Shown piece after piece: positions 18,444 to 23,122 of a stretch of DNA of 27,839 nt. The stretch is from assembly GCA_023859445.1 (NCBI GenBank), contig GCA_023859445.1_4337.1. One strand, 5' to 3'. The notes under the pieces are model-generated. The model was not told the origin of the DNA and searched no databases. It was given only the letters and a program-made list of their open reading frames with translations. Both the position numbers and the translations under genes were made by a program. Position 1 is the first letter of the stretch; the number at the start of each line of letters is the position of its first letter. The DNA is from a phage.

Positions 18444-19610
18444 ATGGCTACAACTCCTTTTAAGGGCGCGAATACTGCGCAATTCTATGTGGCAGAAACT
18501 ACCCCTGGCGTAACACCGACTAACCCGGTCTGGTCGCCATTGCGTAACACAGGTGGCGTTCCTGCCATTACCCGCGACACGCTGACCTCCAACGAACTGG
18601 ACGGCAGCCGTGAAACTACATCCATCCGCACCGGTAACAAACAGGTTAGCGGTGAATACGCGATCGAGCTTAGCTCGAAAAGCCAGGATGACTGGCTGGC
18701 TGGTGCTTTAGGCTCTACGTGGCAATCCGGTGTTTCCCTGTCCAGTCTGTCGATTACCGTCGCACCCGCGGGCAAGACGTTCACACGCGCTACCGGCAGT
18801 TTTATCACTGACGGAGTTGGGGTAGGCGACCTGATTGCATTTACCGATTTAACAGGCGATAACGCAAAACCATTTATTGTTACTGCAGTAACGGCTACGG
18901 TTGTTACCGGTGCGGGCATCCAACACACCCTGACCACCGAGACAAAAACTAGTAAGGCTAAAACCGGCGACACGCTGGAAACCGGTAACACGTGTAAGAC
19001 GTTCTCTATCCTTACCTGGTACAAAGGCCAGTGCGGCGGTACTGACGCGTACACGTTAACCAAAGGCGTGGAAGTTTCTGGTTTTACCATCGAACAGGCT
19101 GTTAACGCGATGGTAACTGGCAGCTTCCCATTCATCGGTCGCAGTCAGGAGATTCTCACTACGCCGCCGACCGGTTCCAACTTCTCATCTGTTACTTTTG
19201 GTGATGAGCCGTTCTCTTCGGTTGACGTTTCCGTGTTCGATGGCTCTACGCCGTTGCGTTGTGATAGCCTTACCATCACCAACGACAACAGCGCGTCCGC
19301 ACAGTTCGAACTCGGCAACACTAACGTAGCGTTTGTGGAGCGTAGCCGAGCAGCTAACACCTTCTCCATCTCCGGTAAGCTGTACGACATGGCGATGATT
19401 CAGAAGTTTATCAACGAGCAGCAGGTGGAGATTAACTCTATTCTGGCGGGGGTAAACGGGGCTATGTCTTTCAGTTTGAAACGTGCAGAACTTACGGCGG
19501 TTACACCTGAGATTGGAGGACCTGAGTCAATCACTCAGTCTATTGAAGGCCAGGCTACTGGCAACCAGTACCAGTCGTCTATTGTTATTCAGCGTATCAC
19601 ATACGCATAA
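18444..19610 (+). CDS. Major tail (tube) protein (putative), 389 aa
   Basis: ATG 18444 (SD AAGAGG 8 nt upstream) within track ORF 18438-19610; followed by strong terminator; by synteny. Confidence 0.55.
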   Translation: MATTPFKGANTAQFYVAETTPGVTPTNPVWSPLRNTGGVPAITRDTLTSNELDGSRETTSIRTGNKQVSGEYAIELSSKSQDDWLAGALGSTWQSGVSLSSLSITVAPAGKTFTRATGSFITDGVGVGDLIAFTDLTGDNAKPFIVTAVTATVVTGAGIQHTLTTETKTSKAKTGDTLETGNTCKTFSILTWYKGQCGGTDAYTLTKGVEVSGFTIEQAVNAMVTGSFPFIGRSQEILTTPPTGSNFSSVTFGDEPFSSVDVSVFDGSTPLRCDSLTITNDNSASAQFELGNTNVAFVERSRAANTFSISGKLYDMAMIQKFINEQQVEINSILAGVNGAMSFSLKRAELTAVTPEIGGPESITQSIEGQATGNQYQSSIVIQRITYA

Positions 19611-19614
19611 AACT

Positions 19615-19637
19615 AAGGCCCCGTTTGGGGCCTTTTT
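19615..19637. terminator. Bidirectional intrinsic terminator between convergent major tail gene and minus-strand operon
   Basis: Stem AAGGCCCC/GGGGCCTT, loop GTTT, flanked by AAAACT and TTTTT; stop of minus gene (19639) sits in the T-tract. Confidence 0.75.
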
Positions 19638-19638
19638 C

Positions 19639-20193
19639 TTACAAACCTAATCTTAAAGCAATGCCTATAGCGTTCGATTTAACGTAACCCGGTATGATGT
19701 AGGTGTCATAATCTTTTACACCATCAATATCGTACAGGTAACCGCGGCTGTCCCCTTCAAACGTATGGCCGTCTCTGTGCAAGCGGACGATTCTCACATC
19801 ATGCCACGCGGCAACGATAGGGGCTACTTCGCTGGCGAACCCGCCATCAGACACCACAAAAACTTCGTCGCCGTCGGGCAAGTTTCCGGCAAGATACTTA
19901 CCGAAATAATCATCACCGAATACCGGTTTAATGAATTGCTCGGAAATGGCAATCATGAACTGACGCCGAGACAACCCGTTAAGGAAACCCTCTGGCTTTT
20001 CTTTCCGCGCCCGGTCGTCGTAGCCGTCGAGAAACTCGCGGTAAGCATCCTGGCCTAACGCAGCCATAGCAATATTGAACATCGGATTCTTGAAACTGGC
20101 GACACCCTTCGCAAAGCCCATTTCTACCAGCGCCCTAGCAAGTGTGTCTTTCCCGCAGCCCGCAGGACCATTAAGAATAATTACCTTAGCCAT
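19639..20193 (-). CDS. P-loop nucleotide kinase (dNMP kinase-like; possibly polynucleotide 5'-kinase), 184 aa
   Basis: ORF track; N-terminal Walker A LNGPAGCGKDT, similar in pattern to phage dNMP kinase GKDT P-loops. Confidence 0.65.
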   Translation of the reverse strand: MAKVIILNGPAGCGKDTLARALVEMGFAKGVASFKNPMFNIAMAALGQDAYREFLDGYDDRARKEKPEGFLNGLSRRQFMIAISEQFIKPVFGDDYFGKYLAGNLPDGDEVFVVSDGGFASEVAPIVAAWHDVRIVRLHRDGHTFEGDSRGYLYDIDGVKDYDTYIIPGYVKSNAIGIALRLGL

Positions 20194-20678
20194 TATTTAT
20201 CACTCCCATGTGGTTTTAAGTGTGTAGAGTTCCCGTTACAGTCGTATTCAGTAACTGCGTGAGTGGTTATGCCGAGTTCGCGGAAATGCTTTATTACCGC
20301 TGGAGAGTCGTCGAATGCACACAAGATTCTCTCCGGCCCAATAGCACGCAACACCTCTTCTTTAATTACGATGTCTTTTCTGTTGTCGTGTTTGCTGCGC
20401 ATGATTAACTGATAAAATTCGACGCGGTGGCGCTGCAACCACATTCTGGTTTCTTTTTCCGCGTCATCACTACGGCCTGTTAAGATAATAACGGCATAGC
20501 GACGATTAAGGGCGTTACACAGTTCGATGTTATCTTTAATGGGTGCATCGTCTTTGCACGCCATGTTAAATGGTTTCCACGCCCAGGTTTCGCCGTAGTT
20601 ATCTTTCGGCAGCAGGTGTAAACGATGAGTACCATCTGCCAATGTCCCGTCTAAATCGAAAATCACAATATCTTTCAT
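20193..20678 (-). CDS. HAD-superfamily phosphatase (polynucleotide 3'-phosphatase / nucleotidase-like), 161 aa
   Basis: ORF track; HAD motif I FDLDGTL, motif II ILTGRS, C-terminal FDDS; pattern resembles the T4 Pnk phosphatase domain as recalled from memory. Confidence 0.65.
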   Translation of the reverse strand: MKDIVIFDLDGTLADGTHRLHLLPKDNYGETWAWKPFNMACKDDAPIKDNIELCNALNRRYAVIILTGRSDDAEKETRMWLQRHRVEFYQLIMRSKHDNRKDIVIKEEVLRAIGPERILCAFDDSPAVIKHFRELGITTHAVTEYDCNGNSTHLKPHGSDK

Positions 20679-21805
20679 CCAAGCATCTCCGGTGAAATAG
20701 TTAAACGTGCGACCTCGCCATATTCGGCGCTATAAGTAATTACGTTTGCACTGCGGCCCGACATCCACCCACCGCGGGAGGCATATGCATCTTTAGCCGC
20801 GAGAGTGCGGTGTTGCTCAACAATCATGTTACGGCTTTCTATAATCTTTTGGTGGTGCAGGTGACCCACGTGGGCGTAGCTGTAAACACTCTCGCCGAAC
20901 GCTTTGCGGAACTTGGCGATCATAACCGGTTCGATAGCGTCGAATCGTGCTTTATGCCCATGATGGAAGAACAGCGTCGTTTTGCCGTGTTGCACCATCT
21001 TGTAAACATCCGGCGACGTATCGACGAACACACGCGGCTCATTGTCGTACAGCGTACTAAACATCTCAGCTAACCAAATCATTCCGCTTTCGTCGTGGTT
21101 ACCTTGCACGATAAGCAAGCGAACATTTTTATGTTTAACGAGAGCCATATCAATGACACGGCGGACCATACGAATCATGTAGCGTACAAGTTTCTGATAG
21201 CGGGTGTCAGCGTCAAGAACATGACCACTGGCAGGTGTAACGGCGTCCAGACTATCGAAATGCGCAAGGTCGCCCAGCAGATTAATAACTCCTGTTCCGG
21301 CATCCGGTGCTTTCTGGAACGCTGCGTCGAACCAGCGGGAGAACAGGTCTTCCGCAATCTTCATGTCCCAGTCGTCGCCGCTCTCGTCAGCCCAGGCCAG
21401 CATACCGAGATGGAAATCAGACACAGTGTAAAGGTTGAGTAGCTTGTCGTCTCGTTTGGCGCGAACGGCTTTAACAGGTGCAACTGGTGTAATCTCCGAC
21501 TTCATGCCTTCGATTACGGCTTTCATCAATTCAACCTGACGTTCGGCATCGGTGTCGGTCTTAACCCATTGCAACTTGGTGTTGCCAAACTCATCCACCA
21601 GTGATGACGTTCCTTTAATCTTGTAGCCGTCCGGCACAAGGTGACTAACGTCGCGCCCGTGGCCTACGCCTTTCTTAGCCAGCTTCGCTTTACGGATACG
21701 GATAACGCGGTCAGAGATGCCGTATTTACGGGCGATGTCGATATTCTTCATACCGGCGTTCAATTCTTCCTGTAACTGTTCGTCGGTTATTTTCTTCCTG
21801 GCCAT
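20675..21805 (-). CDS. Calcineurin-like metallophosphoesterase with N-terminal HTH-like domain (376 aa)
   Basis: ORF track; phosphoesterase motifs D-x-H (SDFHLG), GD..D (GDLAHFD), GNHDE, HHGH, GHLHH; N-terminal segment NIDIARKYGISDRVIRIRKAKL looks helix-turn-helix. Confidence 0.7.
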   Translation of the reverse strand: MARKKITDEQLQEELNAGMKNIDIARKYGISDRVIRIRKAKLAKKGVGHGRDVSHLVPDGYKIKGTSSLVDEFGNTKLQWVKTDTDAERQVELMKAVIEGMKSEITPVAPVKAVRAKRDDKLLNLYTVSDFHLGMLAWADESGDDWDMKIAEDLFSRWFDAAFQKAPDAGTGVINLLGDLAHFDSLDAVTPASGHVLDADTRYQKLVRYMIRMVRRVIDMALVKHKNVRLLIVQGNHDESGMIWLAEMFSTLYDNEPRVFVDTSPDVYKMVQHGKTTLFFHHGHKARFDAIEPVMIAKFRKAFGESVYSYAHVGHLHHQKIIESRNMIVEQHRTLAAKDAYASRGGWMSGRSANVITYSAEYGEVARLTISPEMLG

Positions 21806-21849
21806 GCTTATTCCTCGTGTTTAGGATTTGTCTTATTTAACTACAATAG

Positions 21850-22176
21850 CTATTTACTTTCCACTCCCGCCGCCCAAGCTAGAGAGACGATTTGTAAGCG
21901 AGTAGCCACCAATGCGCTGCTGTAGCCTGGTGATTTCATGTCCACAGAACTCATGACAAGGCCTGTTACAAGGTCGAAGCTAACCCCTGCTGCTCCTGCT
22001 GAATACGCGGCCTCACATTCTTTAATAACCGCATTTTTAAACATTTTTTGCGCGGCTACAGGGGCGCTTTCTATTAAACCCGCAGTTATTAATGGGGTTT
22101 CAGAATAAATCTGCTCACAAGTGGAACCTACCGCAGTAAAAGATATGAAACCTAAAGCTAAGATTAATGTACGCAT
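21850..22176 (-). CDS. Small secreted/periplasmic protein with N-terminal signal peptide (108 aa)
   Basis: ORF track; MRTLILALGFISFTAVGSTCEQ looks like a cleavable signal peptide (no canonical lipobox); SD AAGGAA; first gene after conserved promoter copy 4. Confidence 0.5.
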   Translation of the reverse strand: MRTLILALGFISFTAVGSTCEQIYSETPLITAGLIESAPVAAQKMFKNAVIKECEAAYSAGAAGVSFDLVTGLVMSSVDMKSPGYSSALVATRLQIVSLAWAAGVESK

Positions 22177-22355: not shown

Positions 22356-22772
22356 ATGAAACTGTCAGACTTCTACTTTGCGTCCAAACACGCAGCAGGA
22401 ACCAAGATGCCGATTCTGTTGCCAGACGGCAGCGATTCCGGCGAATGGCTACAGGTCATGGGGCCAGATTGCGACGACTCCATCGCAGCTGCTAAAGACT
22501 TCATCTCTGCTTATCGCGACATCCTGGACAACCTGAAGCCGCTTGACGCTGAGTGCCGCGAGAAAGGCGACTGGGCTAGATATAACACTGAGTTGAACAG
22601 TGAACTGGCGAAGCTGAATGATGCGCTTGCCGCCGTTGTAGTGATAGGCTGGTCCTTCGACGAGAAGTTCACTAAGAAGGCGCTTGTTAAACTACTCAAG
22701 GAATACAAAGGCTTAGGTGGTGCAGTGGCCCAGCATCACGCAGAGAGCCGCAAAGCGCTGTCGGTAAAGTAG
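22356..22772 (+). CDS. Tail assembly chaperone (putative), 138 aa
   Basis: ORF track; SD AAAGGA; acidic protein immediately upstream of tape measure region; by synteny. Confidence 0.5.
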   Translation: MKLSDFYFASKHAAGTKMPILLPDGSDSGEWLQVMGPDCDDSIAAAKDFISAYRDILDNLKPLDAECREKGDWARYNTELNSELAKLNDALAAVVVIGWSFDEKFTKKALVKLLKEYKGLGGAVAQHHAESRKALSVK

Positions 22773-22804: not shown

Positions 22805-23122
22805 GTGATACGTCAGAAGCGCCGGGAGTTCGACTCCATCGCGGACGGTCACAAAGCGGCTCTGACGGCGATGGGATTACCAGTCCCGCCAGAGCCGGAA
22901 GAAGACCCTCCAGAATGCCCGGCTGATATGATGCGAATCATGGACAAATACTACGCATTGAAGTTTGTAAGTCGCAATAACGTACTAATACCGAGGGAGA
23001 TGCTTCAATACCATCACCTGACAGCATATGCTGAACTACACAAGCAACCGTTCACGCTATTGGAGGTGGATTTAATCATGGGCCTTGACGCATTGTTCGA
23101 AGGCCGTAACGAGGATGAATAG
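22805..23122 (+). CDS. Second tail-chaperone-region ORF in the -1 frame (105 aa; independent gene or frameshift extension)
   Basis: ORF track (GTG start, weak SD); its frame is open from 22691 and overlaps the end of the upstream gene by about 80 nt; ends 2 nt before the tape measure start. Confidence 0.4.
   Translation: MIRQKRREFDSIADGHKAALTAMGLPVPPEPEEDPPECPADMMRIMDKYYALKFVSRNNVLIPREMLQYHHLTAYAELHKQPFTLLEVDLIMGLDALFEGRNEDE

Follow-up and report, generated by a model that had tools for sequence, protein, structure and literature searches.

Overlapping genes for a predicted Pnkp-clade phosphatase and a predicted gp1-family kinase in a Kagunavirus

Gene organization of the locus

The window, that is, the whole stretch of 27,839 nucleotides analysed, derives from a Kagunavirus, a K1G/K1H-like coliphage, and is 99.4% identical to deposited genomes. 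Its minus strand carries two overlapping genes, predicted to encode a stand-alone, kinase-less HAD phosphatase of the Pnkp family (161 residues; 20193..20678) and a P-loop kinase of the T4 gp1 family, which is of the dNMP-kinase type (184 residues; 19639..20193). Both reading frames lie exactly where the first-pass annotation of this DNA had placed them, and the 1-nt overlap that it described was read directly in the sequence as TAATG (20191..20195, minus strand). Specifically, the phosphatase stop codon TAA (20195-20193) and the kinase start codon ATG (20193-20191) have the single base 20193 in common. The junction reads GGGAGTGATAAATAATGGCT on the minus strand, and a Shine-Dalgarno-like GGAG lies 9 nt 5' of the kinase ATG.

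The pair forms the distal part of a three-gene unit headed by a minus-strand gene (20675..21805) for a 376-residue protein, in which an N-terminal LuxR/GerE-type HTH is combined with a calcineurin-like metallophosphoesterase labelled 'DNA repair exonuclease'. The start and stop codons of the HAD and metallophosphoesterase genes overlap in ATGA at 20675..20678 (minus strand ...GGAGATGCTTGGATGAAAG). The unit is inverted, with tail-tube and tail-chaperone genes on its two sides. Its three genes, with their overlapping reading frames, would be co-transcribed leftward; upstream of them, a simple scan for promoters revealed no convincing sigma-70 site. A GC-rich hairpin at 19615..19634, predicted by a consensus scan only, is flanked by the convergent tail-tube and kinase genes. 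It has an 8-bp stem with 6 GC pairs and a T-run on the plus strand, and is terminator-like on both strands.

A variable small-gene slot adjoins the cassette and, in fKuEco01, carries a superinfection-immunity gene. The annotation of a near-identical Kagunavirus genome includes the phage's own DNA polymerase, no ligase and no further nucleotide-synthesis gene. Both the HAD gene and the kinase gene are conserved across phage records numbering from the hundreds to the thousands, 2,995 being positive for the HAD gene and 1,544 for the kinase. Given this conservation and the profile matches described below, the gene pair and its motifs are far more than the product of chance. NCBIfam yielded no meaningful match for any cassette protein.

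The HAD phosphatase

The HAD protein matched Pfam PF25109 (HAD_PNKP) with an E-value of 6.7e-20 and a score of 72.1 bits (cut-off 27.6), the match spanning residues 3-144 of the protein and positions 2-140 of the 143 in the model. It also matched phrog_415 (E 8e-67), and its predicted fold was nearest to solved Pnkp phosphatase domains. The solved structures closest to it are enzymes of nucleic-acid ends, and the closest known systems are T4 PseT/Pnkp (1LTQ, 5UJ0) and Capnocytophaga Pnkp1 (4XRP). The motifs noticed in the first pass were all located by script on the minus strand: FDLDGTL (motif I; residues 7-13, 20640..20660), with nucleophile Asp8 and acid/base Asp10, ILTGRS (residues 65-70, 20469-20486) and FDDS (residues 122-125, 20304-20315).

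Residues Asp8 and Asp10 align with Asp165 and Asp167 of T4 Pnkp, Thr67, Lys106, Asp123 and Asp124 align with T4 Ser211, Lys258, Asp277 and Asp278, and Thr12 of the DxDxT motif is likewise aligned. Among 24 family members (alignment A2), Asp8, Asp10, Thr12, Lys106, Asp123 and Asp124 are invariant, and Thr67 is conserved in at least 90%. Mutagenesis of T4 Pnkp identified Arg176, Arg213 and Asp254 as clade-specific essential residues. Their counterparts, Arg19, Arg69 and Asp102, are invariant in A2, and Arg19 sits 11 residues past the nucleophile, the spacing being identical in T4. In the T4 enzyme, Asp165, Asp167, Ser211, Lys258 and Asp278 have nucleophile/acid-base, phosphate-binding and Mg-binding roles (PMC3592404).

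Sequence, profile, predicted fold and catalytic residues thus agree with the likeness to the T4 Pnk phosphatase domain that had been proposed for this protein. As judged from its sequence, the HAD protein belongs to the T4 Pnkp phosphatase clade, lacks a kinase domain and would act as a Mg-dependent DxDxT acyl-phosphatase. Since its nearest relatives act on polynucleotide ends, a role at DNA or RNA ends is possible. The locus nevertheless differs from T4 Pnkp in several respects. A Pnk-type kinase domain is absent from the HAD polypeptide, from the neighbouring gene and from 80 related loci (23 clusters; see below), the adjacent kinase belongs to another family, and a Rnl-type ligase partner is not annotated here. 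The HAD family also adds conserved features of its own, namely a cap segment (HRLHLLP...W..FN) and a C-terminal SHG motif. An assignment to the 5'(3')-deoxyribonucleotidases (PF06941, NT5C) was rejected because the score, 19.5 bits, was below the cut-off of 24.8 and the match was partial, covering residues 45-107 only.

The gp1-family kinase

The kinase matched phrog_139 at 2.3e-44, as compared with 1.3e-65 for T4-type gp1, and was aligned with gp1 over 137 columns using hhalign. In a fold search, dNMP, adenylate and phosphomevalonate kinases were nearest, and gp1 was the best structural match. The P-loop GPAGCGKDT (residues 9-17; 20143..20169, minus strand), located by script, aligns with GVKRSGKDT of gp1, GKDT being a variant typical of gp1 and phosphomevalonate kinases. 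Among 39 family members (alignment A1), its Gly14, Lys15 and Asp16 do not vary. Searching the PDB with the kinase, by sequence and by profile, returned P-loop-level matches only (AAA+ ATPases, adenylate kinase 9). The first-pass view that this P-loop resembles that of dNMP kinases was borne out.

The acceptor site was compared with that of gp1 using the residue roles in 1DEK, as tabulated in PMC10653934. Residues Arg68, Arg132, Met135, Asp175, Glu181 and Arg197 of gp1 correspond to Arg61, Arg77, Met80, Asp116, Glu122 and Arg140 of the kinase, all of which are invariant, near-invariant or consensus in A1. At the positions that contact base and sugar, the kinase has an invariant Asp116, an invariant Glu122 and Met80 as the consensus; an invariant Glu85 stands where gp1 has Thr140. 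The dNMP phosphate-binding set of gp1 comprises Lys37, Arg68, Arg132 and Arg177. Arg68 and Arg132 are kept, but Lys37 is replaced by Phe39 and Arg177 by Gly118, the DTR motif of gp1 and phosphomevalonate kinases having become DGG. Because two of these four residues are changed, the acceptor may not be a canonical dNMP. The invariant Lys35, Lys64, Lys89 and Arg150 might stand in for the missing phosphate-binding residues.

The relatives of the kinase include T4 gp1 (1DEK/1DEL), T5 Dnk and the island-encoded dNMPK of P. putida, PP_1964, a member of the same dNMP-kinase family that provides thymidylate kinase function in vivo (PMC10653934). The kinase shares only about 20% identity with gp1 and is shorter (184 versus 241 residues), a large insert between aligned gp1 residues 64 and 75 being missing. 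Moreover, its P-loop is a classical GxxGxGK without a counterpart of gp1 Arg11, and its family has an invariant GDSR. From its profile and predicted fold, the protein is best described as a member of the T4 gp1-type nucleoside-monophosphate kinase family.

Comparison with T4 Pnk

The first-pass annotation had suggested that the two genes represent a split Pnkp in which the T4 order of the domains is reversed. The order is indeed the reverse of that in T4, and the phosphatase half is of the Pnkp type; the kinase, however, is not of the Pnk family. Its alignment with T4 Pnk is confined to the 25-residue P-loop, and no profile or structural similarity to T4 Pnk was found outside this segment. The essential kinase residues of T4 Pnk include Ser16 and Asp35 (PMC2831316). 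The former is replaced by Asp16, invariant in the 39 family members, and the latter, the general base, by an invariant Lys35 within the motif SFKNPMF. An RDxxR-type Asp/Arg pair (T4 Asp35 and Arg38), sought approximately 20 residues past the P-loop Lys, is absent from the kinase. The true Pnkp encoded at locus L084, on a viral contig, carries GKST...NRDNAR.

Three protein searches were inspected for a HAD-kinase fusion; none was present among the best 120 proteins listed in each, nor in 160 loci. A 338-residue PB1-like 'polynucleotide kinase' was evaluated as a candidate fusion and rejected: it consists of a HAD domain and a C-terminal domain that has no P-loop. The latter domain showed no significant similarity to the MazZ-like protein (BLASTP E 0.59) and was therefore not counted as evidence.

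Gene neighbourhood in related phages

Close relatives of the HAD gene were surveyed at 80 IMG/VR loci, grouped into 23 clusters. A gp1-like kinase lay downstream of the HAD gene in 15 of the clusters, with an overlap of 1 nt or 4 nt in 7 of these 15. In the other 8 it was replaced by a MazZ-like dATP/dGTP pyrophosphohydrolase (PF18909), and no cluster had neither enzyme. A constant kinase partner, as expected of a fission-derived Pnkp, was thus not seen. Because the dNTP pyrophosphohydrolase runs opposite to the kinase, a single common pathway is not obvious. Within 4 kb of the HAD gene, a recognisable metallophosphoesterase gene was present in no more than about half of these 23 clusters.

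Pairing with the HAD gene is not obligatory for the kinase, since 24 of the sampled kinase clusters contained no HAD gene. The neighbours of the kinase at kinase-only loci are ThyA, RNR, ligase and polymerase genes, a setting that points to ordinary DNA precursor metabolism; at two of these loci, L039 and L066, a DNA ligase gene adjoins the kinase. At L063, a T5 Dmp-like 5'-dNMP phosphatase precedes the kinase in the cluster ThyA-Dmp-kinase-MazG-RNR. As in the window, a phosphatase is encoded directly upstream of a gp1-family kinase, in this case in a nucleotide-metabolism cluster. The T5-type Dmp is an HD-domain 5'-deoxyribonucleotidase, whereas the window phosphatase is a Pnkp-clade HAD protein whose characterised relatives are 3'-specific. 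At L084, a gp1-like kinase gene is adjoined by genes for Rnl1 and for a full-length Pnkp, which includes a kinase domain of its own. Because a mononucleotide enzyme accompanies the HAD gene in all 23 clusters and L084 encodes a separate Pnkp, the idea of a split Pnkp is supported in part only, and its central point, a single Pnkp divided between two genes, is not supported. Best matches to mononucleotide enzymes, named in the first pass as the outcome that would speak against the split, were found for the kinase but not for the HAD protein.

Drexlerviridae share the three gene families and their order (PMC13164509; TLS Gp09/Gp14, PMC11447400). There the locus lies beside the lysis genes, whereas the window cassette is inverted within the tail-gene block of a member of the Guernseyvirinae. 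A nucleotide-supply role was proposed by the authors for the exonuclease-PNK-dNMP kinase locus of Drexlerviridae, in which the metallophosphoesterase gene is near-universal and the PNK/dNMP-kinase pair accessory (PMC13164509, 2026). Both papers are descriptive, without biochemistry, and our literature search turned up no biochemical work on the proteins in question, whether from Kagunavirus or from Drexlerviridae.

The metallophosphoesterase

The product of the first gene matched phrog_704 at 1.5e-167; the Pfam Metallophos and GerE matches were weak. The motifs DxH, GDxxH, GNHD and GHxH were seen in its translation and alignment. In Webervirus, Ahphunavirus and Kotilavirus, too, the HAD gene has this gene upstream of it. 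When the family profile was searched against the PDB, the N-terminal HTH alone was matched, and there was no match to the solved Pnkp phosphatase. The nuclease label derives from the PHROG name and from the depositors' HHpred note, and the protein is a putative Mre11/DP1-like exonuclease. The bacterial Pnkp-Hen1 RNA repair system similarly encodes a P-loop kinase and a calcineurin-type metallophosphoesterase together. It differs in that the window genes are separate, the kinase is of the gp1 family, a HAD phosphatase is added, and there is neither a ligase module nor Hen1.

Discussion

A functional Pnkp divided between two genes would use the HAD protein to heal 3'-phosphate or 2',3'-cyclic phosphate ends and the kinase to heal 5'-OH ends, for tRNA or DNA ligation, for example in response to anticodon nucleases. 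We consider this very improbable. The kinase resembles T4 Pnk in the P-loop only, having Asp16, Lys35 and no Arg38-type motif, and its fold is nearest to those of dNMP, adenylate and phosphomevalonate kinases. The MazZ-like partner in 8 of the 23 HAD clusters would be unable to heal 5' ends, and the occurrence of a complete Pnkp with Rnl1 alongside a gp1-like kinase at L084 argues in the same direction, as do the lack of an annotated ligase in the near-identical genome and the absence of fusions from the searches above. Set against these are the truly Pnkp-clade phosphatase, the 1-base overlap, the recurrence of the phosphatase-then-kinase order in three phage families, and a DGG variant compatible with another acceptor. 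The upstream metallophosphoesterase is also loosely like the phosphatase module of bacterial Pnkp (PMC3675462), and a ligase gene adjoins the kinase at L039 and L066. These ligase genes prompted consideration of a bacterial Pnkp-like triad of kinase, metallophosphoesterase and ligase. It was set aside because both loci are podophage-like DNA-metabolism clusters, in which a ligase and a nucleotide kinase occur together anyway, and because the near-identical Kagunavirus genome has no annotated ligase.

It is rather unlikely that the HAD protein and the metallophosphoesterase clean polynucleotide 3'-phosphates, in phage repair and recombination or in unblocking host DNA, with the dNMP kinase merely co-located or co-expressed. 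The activity of the nearest solved HAD relatives on nucleic-acid ends is consistent with such a role, as are the DNA-binding-type HTH and intact catalytic motifs of the metallophosphoesterase, the adjacency of the two genes in four genera and the frequent occurrence of the kinase without the HAD gene, beside replication genes. However, a mononucleotide enzyme downstream of the HAD gene in every sampled cluster is hard to credit to chance. In the survey, moreover, a recognisable metallophosphoesterase gene accompanied no more than about half of the clusters, and in Drexlerviridae that gene is near-universal and the pair accessory. Less probable again is a counter-defence or small-molecule role, in which the enzymes would act on a non-canonical nucleotide, be it an immune signalling nucleotide, an alarmone or a dNMP bearing damage or a modification, and would neutralise host immunity or reshape the pool instead of salvaging nucleotides in bulk. 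The cassette behaves like a mobile accessory module found in varied genome regions, here inverted in the tail module, and the adjoining slot can hold a superinfection-immunity gene. The kinase acceptor site differs from that of gp1, whose fold family includes a non-nucleotide kinase, phosphomevalonate kinase, and MazG/MazZ-like partners are often pool-sanitising enzymes. Against this, none of the cassette proteins matched PADLOC or a named anti-defence family, nothing points to any particular signalling molecule, and the kinase-only loci lie among DNA-precursor and replication genes.

We therefore favour, as probable, the reading that the phosphatase and the kinase are distinct enzymes, encoded in a conserved and horizontally mobile phage cassette that recycles DNA and nucleotides, rather than the halves of a Pnkp. 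The pair is most likely part of a three-gene cassette for nucleotide recycling. This reading builds on the family membership of both proteins, on catalytic residues that are intact, on the organisation of the genes as an operon and on a neighbourhood that is conserved; from these we infer which substrates are used, that the metallophosphoesterase is a nuclease and how the pathway runs. The putative nuclease would degrade DNA, probably that of the host. The phosphatase would then take off 3'-phosphate blocks or clear 3'-phosphorylated products, its substrates most likely being the 3'-phosphates of deoxynucleotides, whether DNA ends or mononucleotides. Finally, the kinase, most likely converting (d)NMPs to (d)NDPs with ATP as the donor, would feed 5'-dNMPs back to the dNTP pool for the family-A DNA polymerase of the phage.

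A consideration against recycling is that an adjacent phosphatase and kinase could work in a futile cycle if the phosphatase were not 3'-specific. More tentatively, the kinase-less HAD protein, which thousands of phage genomes carry under the name 'polynucleotide kinase', may be a mononucleotide-directed, obligate partner of either a gp1-type kinase or a MazZ-type enzyme, forming with the HTH-metallophosphoesterase a mobile recycling or pool-editing cassette. The DGG/GDSR acceptor site would then reflect a non-standard nucleotide, either 3'-phosphorylated or modified. We regard this as a possibility of lower probability than recycling by two separate enzymes.

The overlapping HAD and kinase genes are a common phage pair that is already annotated, and the three-gene cassette has already been noted in the T1-like family Drexlerviridae. 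The pair represents neither a new type of enzyme nor a new type of system, and the main value of the analysis lies in annotation. Indeed, in this phage group the 161-residue HAD protein, which lacks a kinase domain, is widely annotated as 'polynucleotide kinase' or 'kinase-phosphatase', and the kinase gene bears labels as varied as 'RFC large subunit' and 'GTP-binding protein Era'. The strict pairing of the HAD protein with a mononucleotide enzyme suggests a nucleotide-recycling role in phage DNA synthesis. For T1 and TLS, the question of which phage genes mediate the reuse of host DNA has been raised (PMC11447400), and a nucleotide-recycling role of the pair would bear on it.

Locus organization and annotation

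Both genes of interest lie on the minus strand, one encoding a 161-aa HAD phosphatase (20678..20193) and the other a 184-aa P-loop kinase (20193..19639). A script located every motif quoted in the first-pass annotation: FDLDGTL (20640-20660), ILTGRS (20469-20486) and FDDS (20304-20315) in the HAD protein, GPAGCGKDT (20143-20169) in the kinase, and TAATG at the junction where the two reading frames overlap (20191-20195), all on the same strand. A Shine-Dalgarno-like GGAG precedes the kinase ATG by 9 nt. The HAD start overlaps, through ATGA, a gene for a 376-aa HTH-metallophosphoesterase (21805..20675, minus strand). The resulting leftward cassette has a GC-rich hairpin at its end (19615-19634) and lies in inverted orientation, flanked by the tail-tube gene and the tail-assembly-chaperone genes.

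Window positions 19400-21900 were 99.4% identical to Escherichia phages MirsaeidiM_Esher4 and fKuEco01 and 99.2% identical to K1H, all Kagunavirus of the subfamily Guernseyvirinae; related DNA occurred in 199 phage records. As near-identical genes have been deposited and annotated and the locus has been described in the literature, the gene pair is already known. The labels in fKuEco01 are 'putative deoxynucleotide kinase' and 'putative polynucleotide kinase/phosphatase'; 'polynucleotide kinase' on a HAD-only protein is an over-annotation. GenBank names vary among near-identical phages: the kinase appears as 'replication factor C large subunit', 'GTP-binding protein era' or 'ATPase', the HAD protein as 'acid phosphatase' or 'kinase-phosphatase', and the metallophosphoesterase as 'DNA polymerase II small subunit'. 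In a near-identical Kagunavirus genome, genes for helicase-primase and family-A DNA polymerase are annotated, with none for ligase, ribonucleotide reductase or thymidylate synthase.

A 108-aa ORF (21850-22176, minus strand), oriented like the metallophosphoesterase gene and just upstream of it, has a signal-peptide-like N-terminus and belongs to phrog_14165, a family with no assigned function. This slot looks like a variable accessory-gene position, since fKuEco01 has there a gene for superinfection immunity (Imm) together with a small ORF. Plus-strand ORFs at 22356-22772 and 22805-23122, just upstream of the tape-measure gene, occupy the site of the fKuEco01 tail-assembly chaperone with its programmed-frameshift product and look like the usual tail-chaperone arrangement.

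The HAD protein and the metallophosphoesterase

The HAD protein matched the full Pfam HAD_PNKP model (PF25109) at 72.1 bits (cut-off, 27.6). NT5C deoxyribonucleotidase was rejected, as the match was partial and scored 19.5 bits against a threshold of 24.8. Sequence searches found no solved relatives other than Pnkp1 (4xrp) and T4 Pnkp (5uj0, 1ltq), and a profile built from 24 HAD relatives aligned with residues 151-298 of T4-type Pnkp at 97.9% probability. Mutagenesis of T4 Pnkp identified Arg176, Arg213 and Asp254 as essential; their aligned counterparts are Arg19, Arg69 and Asp102. Similarly, the T4 residues Asp165, Asp167, Ser211, Lys258, Asp277 and Asp278, whose roles have been described (PMC3592404), correspond to Asp8, Asp10, Thr67, Lys106, Asp123 and Asp124. 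All mapped positions are invariant across the HAD family save Thr67, where conservation is at least 90%. The resemblance to the T4 Pnk phosphatase domain, initially noted from motifs, was thus borne out: judged from its sequence, the protein genuinely belongs to the Pnkp phosphatase clade, lacks a kinase domain and is probably active. Unlike T4 Pnkp, the family has a C-terminal tail (residues 146-161; 20196-20243, minus strand), predicted with low confidence, in which Ser-His-Gly (S156, H157, G158) is nearly invariant and which could serve in partner binding or active-site capping.

The metallophosphoesterase is named 'DNA repair exonuclease' in PHROGs, and its catalytic motifs are all intact. 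According to the depositors' note, the PolD small subunit is a strong HHpred match.

The kinase

No Pfam family scored above threshold for the kinase, and sequence matches in the PDB were limited to the P-loop. It matched phrog_139, 'deoxynucleoside monophosphate kinase', at 2.3e-44; T4-type gp1, the dNMP kinase, of phage RB51 matched at 1.3e-65 and hence belongs to the same family. A 39-sequence kinase profile aligned with gp1 over 137 columns (E 1.4e-5) and with T4-type Pnkp over the first 25 residues only. Named matches among predicted viral structures were dNMP or phosphomevalonate kinases. Using residue roles listed for gp1 (1DEK; PMC10653934), we found Arg68, Arg132, Met135, Asp175, Glu181 and Arg197 conserved as Arg61, Arg77, Met80, Asp116, Glu122 and Arg140. 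In contrast, Phe39 stands in place of gp1 Lys37 and Gly118 in place of Arg177, which turns the gp1 'DTR' motif into 'DGG'. Other invariant basic residues, Lys35, Lys64, Lys89 and Arg150 (in GDSR), might compensate. Based on the family match, profile alignment and conserved residues, membership of the gp1 dNMP-kinase family is clear, in agreement with the initial view of this protein as dNMP-kinase-like; its acceptor may differ from a canonical dNMP.

The structural relatives of the kinase included BFVD A0A6J5RPH7 and A0A7S6HV70. One, of 297 aa and named 'nucleoside 2-deoxyribosyltransferase', may be fused to a second nucleotide enzyme; the other, a copy from phage JEP1, is 518 aa long and has a DOD-type homing-endonuclease (intein-like) insert.

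Gene neighbourhoods

The kinase and HAD families occurred in 1,544 and 2,995 phage records, respectively. The metallophosphoesterase-HAD-kinase order, with overlapping reading frames, recurs in Klebsiella Webervirus (Drexlerviridae) and Aeromonas Ahphunavirus (Autographiviridae). The kinase retrieved 80 IMG/VR loci: in 36 a HAD gene precedes it on the same strand, and in 44 (24 clusters) none does. These kinase-only loci are set among replication and nucleotide genes: one (L063) encodes ThyA, a T5 Dmp-like dNMP phosphatase, the kinase, MazG and RNR, and in two (L039 and L066) a DNA ligase gene adjoins the kinase gene.

A second sample comprised 80 loci (L089-L168) encoding close relatives of the HAD protein, which grouped into 23 clusters at 90% identity. 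A gp1-like kinase lay downstream in 15 clusters; in 8, from podophages, a MazZ-like dATP/dGTP pyrophosphohydrolase (PF18909) took its place, as in the podophage Pectobacterium phage PP16 (L087 3018-5031), whose orf34 matched PF18909 at E 1e-34. No sampled locus combined the two partners, no cluster had neither, and none of the 23 contained a Pnk-type kinase domain. No HAD-kinase fusion was seen among the matches listed in three large protein searches.

In Pseudomonas phage phiKT28 (Pbunavirus; L002 2477-3493), a 338-aa 'polynucleotide kinase' has no P-loop; an acidic linker joins its HAD_PNKP domain to a helical C-terminal domain. The helical domain showed no significant similarity to the MazZ-like protein. 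The phiKT28 gene lies near that for thymidylate synthase, with one small ORF between, and upstream of DNA polymerase III genes.

Function of the cassette

The first-pass annotation had proposed a polynucleotide kinase-phosphatase split between two genes. This stood for the Pnkp-type phosphatase half and failed for the kinase half, whose likeness to T4 Pnk is confined to the P-loop. T4 Pnk kinase activity needs Lys15, Ser16, Asp35, Arg38, Asp85 and Arg126 (PMC2831316); in the kinase family, Ser16 is replaced by an invariant Asp and Asp35 by an invariant Lys (Lys35, in SFKNPMF). The genes encode a stand-alone Pnkp-type phosphatase beside a dNMP-kinase-type enzyme, not one Pnkp in two pieces, and a working split Pnkp, in which the gp1-like kinase acts on 5'-OH ends, is very improbable. 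An environmental viral contig (L084 18-6510) carries, in a row, DNA ligase, Hsp20, T4-type RNA ligase 1 (Rnl1), full-length Pnkp (34% identical to T4-type PseT over 296 aa), gp1-like kinase and a clamp-loader subunit. Here a complete tRNA-repair pair is immediately beside a member of the kinase family, with the Pnkp gene directly upstream of it, and the gp1-like kinase is not needed for Pnk kinase function.

The cassette most likely functions in nucleotide recycling. The metallophosphoesterase would act as a DNA-digesting nuclease, the phosphatase would clear 3'-phosphates from blocked ends or from the products, and the kinase would return 5'-dNMPs towards dNTPs. A 2026 Drexlerviridae paper describes the same exonuclease-PNK-dNMP kinase locus and advances the same hypothesis (PMC13164509); in T1 and TLS, host-DNA reuse is documented, the responsible genes being not known (PMC11447400). 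Set against recycling are the absence from the kinase of gp1 Lys37 and Arg177 equivalents, the MazZ-like partner, which works in the opposite direction to the kinase, and the preference of the nearest HAD relatives for polynucleotides. A phosphatase purely for DNA ends, its neighbouring kinase unrelated, appears rather unlikely. Counter-defence or a different small-molecule role is improbable; PADLOC gave no matches. In each of the 23 clusters sampled, the HAD phosphatase is followed by a mononucleotide enzyme, suggesting a directly testable role for this phosphatase in the nucleotide pool.
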